NCBI RefSeq assembly: GCF_051903065.1
Contig: NZ_CP178438.1
DNA length: 64,000 bases
Direction: 5' to 3' (one strand)
Source: Escherichia coli
GTDB taxonomy: Bacteria > Pseudomonadota > Gammaproteobacteria > Enterobacterales > Enterobacteriaceae
Position 1 is the first letter of the stretch, and every line of letters begins with the position of its first letter. The notes beneath the pieces were generated by a model. That model ran no database searches, was not told the DNA's origin, and was given only the letters and a program-made list of their open reading frames with translations. Shown one piece after another: positions 32,712 through 33,428 of the stretch. The position numbers were made by a program, and so were the translations under genes.

Positions 32712-33428
32712 GTTGGAGTCATTACCAACCGCTTAGTGCCAGCAAAACACCCAGCGTCAATCTACTGAATTTCGTTGTCAGTCCAGAGGATTTTCGCAAA
32801 TTAACCGTTGATGTTTTACCTACCCTGCGAGTTAATTCCGAGCAGGCCTGAAATACCTCTAGAGTGCAATTCCATATCACGCGATAGATTCTATTCATAT
32901 AAACGCTCCATATACAAACAATACAGCCACGAAAGAGATGAGTCGTCAGACATTAAAAATGAAATTTATTAAATTGTCAGAGGTCTGTATTGAGTGTTAG
33001 TTGGAGGTGGGAAAGTGTCAATTTGGCTAATTTGCTAATACTTTCGAATTGATAGATTAAAAATTGCATAGTTCTTATTTCATTTAAAAATGAACTATGA
33101 GTTATTGTTGCTTAATAAGAAAACTGTTTCTTTCAGTAGGAAAATTATCATCATCATATTTAACAAAGAATAGCACTAATTGCTAAAAATCGAAGTTTAT
33201 TAAACCCCTTTTGCATCCATTAATGTCTTTAAGAATATTCGTTATAAAATAAGGGTTATGCTTAATTCTTTAAGAAAAATAGCAATTTTCCCTTGAATAT
33301 AGTACTGGTGATGAAACGATGAATCTGCAAGCTGGCATTTAACAAGCCAGCTCTAAAAGAAGGGAAATAAGAATAACTATACTCAAAAACTAACAGCCAC
33401 GGTCATCATGATGTGGCTGTCAATGAAA

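Follow-up and report, generated by a model that had tools for sequence, protein, structure and literature searches.

The AT-rich DNA between an IS1 element and lsrK, at positions 32727-33428 of the window (the 64-kb stretch of DNA analyzed here, covering the E. coli hipBA-yneO-lsrKR-lsrACDB region), is best read as combining the 3' flank of lsrK with the start of the cryptic autotransporter gene yneO, namely its 5' control region and 57 initial codons, orphaned by an IS1 insertion and a deletion. We assign this reading a probability of about 0.85. The feature itself is already known, being the catalogued yneO/ydeK promoter island, which was orphaned here by a lineage-specific IS1 insertion with an adjacent deletion. 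It is a textbook example of the AT-rich, H-NS-bound upstream region of an acquired and mostly decayed adhesin gene, and its value lies mainly in annotation. The left 172 bp can be labeled as a 5' fragment of the yneO pseudogene, the predicted lsrRK terminator can be placed at 33384-33424, and the autotransporter module can be taken to give way to the lsrK flank near 33285.

The interval was bordered on the left by IS1 (31959-32726) and on the right by lsrK, whose ORF occupied 33429-35021 on the minus strand with the stop codon counted in. The IS1 element, 768 bp long and lying on the plus strand, was delimited by reading its inverted repeats directly and by its ORFs insA (32014-32289) and insB' (32208-32711). 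These borders and the G+C profile confirmed the placement of an AT-rich stretch between IS1 and lsrK, as given in the first-pass annotation. The G+C content fell to 25-31% within 32900-33400, and the most AT-rich 345-bp segment anywhere in the 64-kb window, at 73.6%, was the one at 32952. Just 0.1-0.3% of equally sized segments were as AT-rich as the interval, and A/T tracts of at least 4 nt occurred at 22.6 per kb in the interval versus 11.3 per kb window-wide. The ORF list contained no complete ORF of at least 60 aa inside the interval on either strand, the longest being 58 aa on the minus strand and 54 aa on the plus strand. Such ORFs were also missing from 65% of 1000 shuffled versions of the interval with dinucleotides preserved; their absence is no more than chance for DNA of this composition, and the AT-richness alone stands out. 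The earlier description of the stretch as ORF-free holds at the 60-aa threshold, but the left 172 bp are a coding remnant that specifies an ESPR.

This remnant comprised yneO codons 1-57 (32728-32898, minus strand), encoding an ESPR extended signal peptide (MNRIYRVIWN...) according to Pfam, NCBIfam, and PGAP. The 58-aa ORF at 32722-32898, whose sequence begins MNRIYRVIWNCTLEVFQACSELTRR..., consisted of these codons joined to the IS1 end and stopped within IS1. It matched the Pfam ESPR family PF13018 with E = 1.5e-15 and positions 1-57 of the 1806 positions of NCBIfam NF011422 (ECSE_1600 family autotransporter) with E = 2.2e-32, and the PGAP label for this remnant is 'ESPR-type extended signal peptide-containing protein, missing C-terminus'. 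Two long ORFs lying left of IS1 corresponded to NF011422 positions 130-479 and 476-1806 and carried the Pertactin, AC_1, and Autotransporter beta-domain families of Pfam. With the gene broken into three pieces by the IS1 insertion, the loss of 213 bp, and a frameshift near 30900, nothing in the window reached the curated full-length cut-off of NF011422 (2335 bits, 1806 aa), and yneO is a pseudogene in the window strain.

The IS1 element cuts yneO after codon 57. In strain ECNB21-M121, which was 100% identical over the interval, IS1 occupies the identical site (PGAP: 'IS1A family transposase') and is flanked by the 9-bp duplication AACCGCTTA. The window copy lacked this 9-bp target duplication, its left flank reading GCCAGGTGC and its right flank AACCGCTTA. 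Because the 213 bp following the IS1 left end in ECNB21-M121, namely the left copy of the duplication and 204 bp of yneO, were missing, an IS1-adjacent deletion has taken place in the window. The exact IS1 right junction was present in three complete genomes, and the deletion junction was common only to strains 23CRST027 and 23CRST031. Both events are of a known kind: the 768-bp element and the 9-bp duplication in the sister strain are those of an ordinary IS1 insertion, and the loss in the window was one-sided, with its start precisely at the end of IS1. Nothing about the deletion is unusual, as it is small (213 bp) and lies in a gene already inactivated by a frameshift. As a separate observation, repeated independent IS1 insertions were seen in and beside the AT-rich DNA of the yneO locus.

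Alignment to strains free of this IS1 (K-12, strain 118, KGu016, EP91A, and others) identified the interval as the ordinary lsrK-yneO intergenic region with the yneO 5' end. The 702-bp query was found once per genome, at 90-100% identity, in 4,226 of 5,426 complete E. coli genomes, with at least 80% of its length covered in 4,001 of them; the locus was missing from about 22%. The matched genomes carried an annotated 'ECSE_1600 family autotransporter' at the left end and lsrK at the right. The 530 bp at 32899-33428, directly upstream of the yneO ATG (32898, minus strand), constitute the normal lsrK-yneO intergenic region present in around 4,000 of the 5,426 genomes. The K-12 orthologue was 97.4% identical over all 702 bp with unchanged flanking genes, and MG1655 has no annotated feature between yneO and lsrK.

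Two relatives allowed the autotransporter to be viewed apart from lsrK. A contig scan with the leader and start sequence returned two loci only, and Pseudocitrobacter faecalis (L016) was used; the second relative, a metagenomic genome referred to as L018, was obtained by a protein search and contig look-up. One of the two loci from the contig scan, on a 'Candidatus Nanosynbacter' MAG contig that was clearly E. coli sequence, was left out as an outgroup. In both P. faecalis and L018, homologous upstream DNA preceded the autotransporter gene and lsrK was absent; beyond this upstream region lay the divergent TAT-signal/2Fe-2S gene of a paoABC-like operon. The homology with E. coli ran from the ATG to -387 (window ~33285) and then ended, with 31% identity farther out, and 33286-33428 had no counterpart upstream of the autotransporter in either relative. 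Since homologous DNA precedes the autotransporter in relatives without lsrK, 32727-33285 belongs to the autotransporter module. The earlier proposal of an orphaned autotransporter regulatory region was accordingly retained for 32899-33285, which travels with the autotransporter in Pseudocitrobacter and L018, and was amended at both ends, where the first 57 codons are included and 33286-33428 is lsrK flank.

The AT-rich core of this module (32985-33329, ~72% A+T) is the orthologue of promoter island 1596197_345, as located by coordinate conversion from Table 1 of PMC3661553 (window = NC_000913.3 - 1565188; U00096.2 to.3 offset of about +1976). Panyukov & Ozoline 2013 list the island under ydeK(-)/lsrK(-), with H-NS class 'A', meaning bound in all ChIP-chip studies, and with a value of 1 in column C (Nakamura foreign gene) (PMC3661553). 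Promoter-like sites in the core, as counted with our own sigma-70 PWM rather than with PlatProm, by which promoter islands were originally defined, reached 4.06 per 100 bp, the mean for the window being 1.21. This 3.4-fold density lies in the top 2% of 345-bp segments, though it is not the highest in the window. The core thus combines a length of at least 300 bp with dense promoter-like sites on both strands, as in a promoter island, and it is linked to a horizontally acquired gene, which is patchy in E. coli and stands in another context in Pseudocitrobacter and L018.

A predicted sigma-70 promoter on the minus strand (32952-32980; -35 CTGACA at 32975-32980, 17-nt spacer, -10 TTTAAT at 32952-32957) comes from the RpoD genomic SELEX of Shimada et al., where the Table 2 entry 'CTGACA-17-TTTAAT yneO < HNS < lsrK' also flags the spacer as an H-NS genomic-SELEX site (PMC3946193). 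This promoter is a sequence pick inside a low-resolution peak; neither its -35 nor its -10 was conserved in the outgroups, and two E. coli strains (L008 and L011) carried a mutated -10. An alternative promoter-like element at 32994-33022 on the same strand (-35 TTGACA at 33017-33022, 17-nt spacer, -10 AACACT at 32994-32999) had the top minus-strand PWM score, 11.1, and was better conserved than the SELEX-derived promoter. The TTGACAC and ACACTCAA.ACAGACCTCT blocks were invariant among E. coli, Pseudocitrobacter, and L018. As to transcription starts, the small portions of the Cappable-seq supplements available list none in the interval by the coordinates of either genome version, which carries no weight in either direction. 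An RpoS holoenzyme SELEX peak has also been reported by Shimada et al. in the yneO-lsrK spacer (PMC5493296). In addition, Adams et al. 2021 called two 'orphan' Rho-termination regions, one at 1598184(+) with a Rho score of 3.5 and one at 1598453(-) with a score of 4.0 (PMC7815308, supplementary file 2), which convert to window positions 32996(+) and 33265(-); the calls rest on low read counts (tens of reads) from K-12 in LB only (PMC7815308). The follow-up papers on promoter islands PMC11661796 and PMC7054387 do not mention island 1596197_345, and the literature on yneO/ydeK was mostly irrelevant beyond the SELEX and promoter-island papers.

The suggestion in the first-pass annotation that the stretch is likely bound by H-NS agrees with the K-12 record, in which the 97.4% identical orthologue was bound in all studies (PMC3661553) and its spacer was selected by H-NS in SELEX (PMC3946193). 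What is said here of H-NS occupancy, of the binding of RpoD and RpoS, and of Rho-termination regions comes from the K-12 literature and would apply to the window strain by analogy. On the same analogy we infer that H-NS probably silences the locus in the window strain, and either of the two elements described above may serve as the promoter.

Along the minus strand, the lsrK stop codon is followed by the lsrRK terminator (33424-33384) and a short E. coli-specific spacer holding another hairpin, and then, from about 33285, by an autotransporter module of some 390 AT-rich bp. Within this module, the distal conserved block comes first, followed by the AT tract with the promoter island, one or two putative sigma-70/sigma-S promoters (33022-32952), the GGAG leader, and the ATG at 32898. 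H-NS would nucleate on the AT-rich tract, spread across the promoter, and silence yneO, and Rho would terminate what pervasive transcription is left in either direction. In the window strain, IS1 inserted after yneO codon 57, and a later 213-bp IS1-adjacent deletion took the next codons together with one of the two target-duplication copies. These events cut yneO and orphaned its promoter region, which would be left able to drive only the 58-aa signal-peptide remnant.

The strongest rival explanation treats the region as the functionless, decaying remains of a dead gene, AT-rich through mutational bias and bound by H-NS only incidentally, as a result of its composition. In its favor, yneO (b4696, formerly ydeK/ydeU) is a frameshifted pseudogene in K-12 and is broken by frameshifts, IS1 insertions, or deletions in many other strains; IS1 has inserted repeatedly at the locus; and the AT core changes as fast as synonymous sites. 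Among 12 E. coli strains, diversity was 0.041 in the intergenic region and 0.052 in the AT core, and that of lsrK was 0.046 at third codon positions and 0.004 at first and second positions. Against it, intact 1806-aa yneO alleles persist in KGu016, EP91A, AST240, and SCEC020001, the upstream DNA of the outgroups has stayed AT-rich (66-68% versus ~50% in the gene body), and the leader, the proximal 100 bp, a dyad, and the distal block stand well above the synonymous baseline across genera. In the comparison between genera (KGu016 versus L018), identity was 61% at third codon positions and 63% at -329..-100, rising to 82% at -99..-46, 93% at -45..-1, and 100% at -30..-1. We therefore consider simple decay unlikely and retain the reading of the interval as the control region of an acquired autotransporter gene.

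The proximal yneO 5' leader (32899-32942, minus strand), delimited by conservation and folding, contains a putative Shine-Dalgarno sequence, GGAG, at 32906-32909, 7 nt before the ATG. Diversity within E. coli dropped to 0.003 at 32877-32926, and the leader appeared unstructured, folding no better than its shuffles (z = +1.67). A paralogue or gene conversion as the source of this conservation was ruled out, as the leader and ESPR start are present in a single copy in E. coli. Farther upstream, conservation pointed to a candidate regulator site at 33171-33185, the dyad TAGCA-N5-TGCTA (TAGCACTAATTGCTA on the plus strand). Its sequence TTTAGCAATTAGTGCTAT did not differ between the window, K-12, Pseudocitrobacter, and L018, and two E. 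coli strains had one substitution each in the central N5 with intact half-sites. The short element ATTGACAC was likewise invariant across E. coli and the outgroups. A distal conserved block at 33228-33285 (-387 to -330), containing GCTATTTTTCTTAAA and the palindromic core GAATATTC, was recognized by its identity to L018, amounting to 83-87% in ungapped 30-nt windows, and beyond it the DNA no longer accompanies the autotransporter. The evidence for the conserved blocks comes from two outgroup lineages, hence from few independent comparisons. Overall, the pattern suggests constraint on the promoter-proximal segment and on a single distal block, with a tract between them that keeps its composition and is free in sequence, as would be expected for an H-NS platform.

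These blocks provide a shortlist of sites for studying how intact adhesin alleles are switched on. The GAATATTC(C) sequence in the distal block resembles the right half of the RcsAB box, and the dyad region resembles the marbox consensus; both resemblances are leads only. RcsAB-box-like matches with at most 3 mismatches numbered 11 in the window versus 5.4 expected, a modest and weak enrichment. The marbox-like match that the dyad overlaps (33170-33188, 1 mismatch) was at chance level, with a window count of 2 versus 1.56 expected. As a speculative and rather doubtful extension, the conserved blocks could be the control sites of a switch that relieves H-NS silencing of the cryptic adhesin, in which the distal block and the dyad would be bound by an RcsB- or MarA/AraC-type activator and the 45-nt leader with the first 30 coding nt would be a post-transcriptional target. 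If so, the window strain would represent a natural promoter-only allele.

On the lsrK side, a strict consensus scan of 32600-33600 found neither a sigma-70 promoter nor a terminator; its criteria (9/12 matches; loop of at most 8 nt) exclude the SELEX promoter as well as the lsrK terminator, and it was replaced by the PWM scan and folding. Folding predicted the lsrRK intrinsic terminator at 33384-33424 on the minus strand, with a 12-bp stem at 33389-33424, a 12-nt loop, and the UUUUU tract at 33384-33388, the structure starting 4 nt past the stop codon of lsrK. Its fold energy was -19.9 kcal/mol (z = -3.8), and 0 of 200 shuffles were equally stable. The stem-loop was invariant in the 12 strains, two of which had a 3-bp indel in the U-tract. 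The part of the PMC7815308 supplement available to us lists no Term-seq 3' end for lsrK or the interval, and lsr was poorly expressed there. A second stem-loop with a 7-8 bp stem and a 9-nt loop was predicted on both strands at 33330-33353, within the E. coli-specific lsrK-proximal part, with -14.6 kcal/mol (z = -2.65) on the minus strand and -12.4 kcal/mol (z = -2.1) on the plus strand; neither strand had a U-run. By alignment and folding, the rightmost 143 bp (33286-33428) are the flank of lsrK, holding its predicted terminator.

The closeness of lsrK, which ends at 33429 with its own terminator right behind it, would also fit the view that the whole stretch is mere lsrK-downstream sequence, a 3' UTR with a terminator unrelated to the autotransporter. 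The two were perfectly co-distributed in E. coli, with lsrK in 4,225 genomes and the intergenic region in 4,226, but the yneO 3' end followed the same distribution (4,118 genomes), and because all three go together, the E. coli data cannot separate lsrK from the autotransporter. The relatives do so: the DNA from -387 to the ATG stands beside paoABC-like genes, with the autotransporter and without lsrK, in Pseudocitrobacter and L018. This refutes the view for 32727-33285 and makes it very unlikely as an account of the interval.

The least probable alternative, for which we found no support, is an unannotated small RNA or small protein encoded in the AT-rich core, a possibility raised in the first-pass annotation: no credible Rfam match was obtained, diversity was near-neutral, and no small ORF was conserved. 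Promoter-like sites are common on both strands, some Rho-sensitive transcription occurs on both strands in K-12 (PMC7815308), and small ORFs of 27-54 aa were intact in all 12 strains compared, the last only because divergence is low. The Rfam search, with E up to 1, gave a single match, inside lsrK and to a human lncRNA family (E = 0.53), which is a chance hit; no orphan intrinsic terminator emerged from scanning and folding, and nothing is annotated in the region in MG1655. Consequently, the core showed neither a known RNA family nor a conserved unit of promoter and terminator. Five small ORFs (27-54 aa) were considered as genes and rejected, since their amino-acid sequences varied among strains (L-to-P, Q-to-R, and Y-to-H changes) and they had no counterpart in Pseudocitrobacter, while core diversity was at the level of synonymous sites both within E. 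coli and between genera. No ORF conserved across lineages with a synonymous bias was found, in a count of amino-acid changes that left synonymous changes uncounted. The available portions of the Term-seq 3'-end and small-ORF ribosome-profiling tables hold no entry for the interval besides the two Rho regions, which is weak evidence.

Read as an orphaned yneO control region, the interval can be set beside several known systems. It shares orthologous sequence, flanking genes, and the AT-rich core with the K-12 lsrK-yneO (ydeK) island 1596197_345, from which it differs in that IS1 also interrupts yneO after codon 57 and the next 213 bp are gone. Regulatory elements also contain a few point differences, for example at 33239 in the palindromic block, where the window has T and K-12 has C. 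AT-rich flanks of patchy genes with Rho regions on both strands are also found among the acquired loci silenced by H-NS and Rho (xenogeneic silencing, PMC7815308), a comparison in which the Rho data come from K-12 in LB at low read numbers and the window is known from sequence alone. The islands ycgV/ychF 1255333_301 and yfaL/ypaB 2342143_534 (PMC3661553) are likewise AT-rich, longer than 300 bp, and located upstream of AIDA-type autotransporters. They are also dense in promoter-like sites and bound by H-NS in all studies (PMC3661553), but share no sequence homology with the yneO island.

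The IS1 element that interrupts the autotransporter gene yneO at 31959-32726 was compared with the same insertion in the sister strain ECNB21-M121. No target-site duplication was found at the IS1 of the window when its junction (31947-31959) was aligned with the comparison locus L001 (6020-6232). ECNB21-M121 carried the target duplication AACCGCTTA and had 213 bp more than the window at the left end of the element. Since both the duplication and the 213 bp were present in ECNB21-M121 and missing from the window, an IS1-adjacent deletion had taken place in the window, through which codons ~58-126 of yneO were lost. 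Among 5,426 complete genomes, this deletion junction was shared only by 23CRST027 and 23CRST031.

Besides the IS1 and the deletion, the remaining yneO sequence (26915-31947, minus strand) contained a frameshift near 30900, and inspection of the region around 30877-30917 located the overlap of the two resulting open reading frames at 30877-30910. K-12 and numerous further strains likewise carried a frameshifted gene, and a protein search returned dozens of alleles that were truncated in various ways or varied in length. The intact 1806-aa form was found in KGu016, EP91A, AST240, SCEC020001, and Res13-Lact-PEB20-37-A. Codon 14 (32857-32859) encoded Glu (CTLEVFQ) in the window and ECNB21-M121, and Gln (CTLQVFQ) in all remaining strains examined, a non-synonymous difference within the orphaned signal-peptide fragment that is specific to this lineage.

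At least three additional independent IS1 insertions were identified at this locus in other strains, with the compared sites including strains PI24 (L005, about 4233-5000) and L37 (L006, about 4236-5000). One insertion, corresponding to window position 32992, lay in the AT-rich core and was linked to replacement of yneO. Another, corresponding to 33393, adjoined the lsrK terminator, and there the intergenic region had been lost along with the 5′ part of yneO. A third, approximately 550 bp into yneO, was present in many strains. The AT-rich region at the 5′ end of yneO looks like an IS1 hot spot.

Two blocks upstream of yneO were conserved across genera. The dyad TAGCA-N5-TGCTA (33171-33185) had both half-sites identical in every sequence compared, and the distal block (33228-33285) contained the palindromic core GAATATTC. 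The dyad looks marbox-like and the distal block RcsAB-box-like, both being resemblances that are statistically not compelling. A second stable hairpin (33330-33353; AGCTGGC, 9-nt loop, GCCAGCT) separated the AT-rich core from the lsrK terminator, with no U-tract on either strand. It varied slightly among strains, including one G-to-A change disrupting the closing pair.

Orthologues of the autotransporter were found in Pseudocitrobacter faecalis (L016, 1084-1537) and a related metagenomic genome (L018, 1-2584 and 8614-9189). In both, a paoABC-like aldehyde oxidoreductase operon in divergent orientation bordered the gene on one side, and a Pmp3 gene and a hipB-like HTH gene lay on the other, so that the hipB-like neighbor is common to these genomes and E. 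coli, whereas lsrK is not.

A further contig, JARKOR010000214.1, was binned in a 'Candidatus Nanosynbacter sp.' (Patescibacteria) MAG. The contig ended in IS1 and shared 97% identity with the hipBA-yneO-lsrK segment of E. coli. Its presence in this public MAG is almost certainly due to contamination with E. coli DNA or to mis-binning.

Elsewhere in the window, further 345-bp AT-rich peaks (70-72% A+T) were located at about 12689, 61519, 4561, 13872, and 24107, several of which also ranked at the top for the density of promoter-like sites (61559, 4570, 53435, 11666, and 12721). These peaks may be additional H-NS-type islands.
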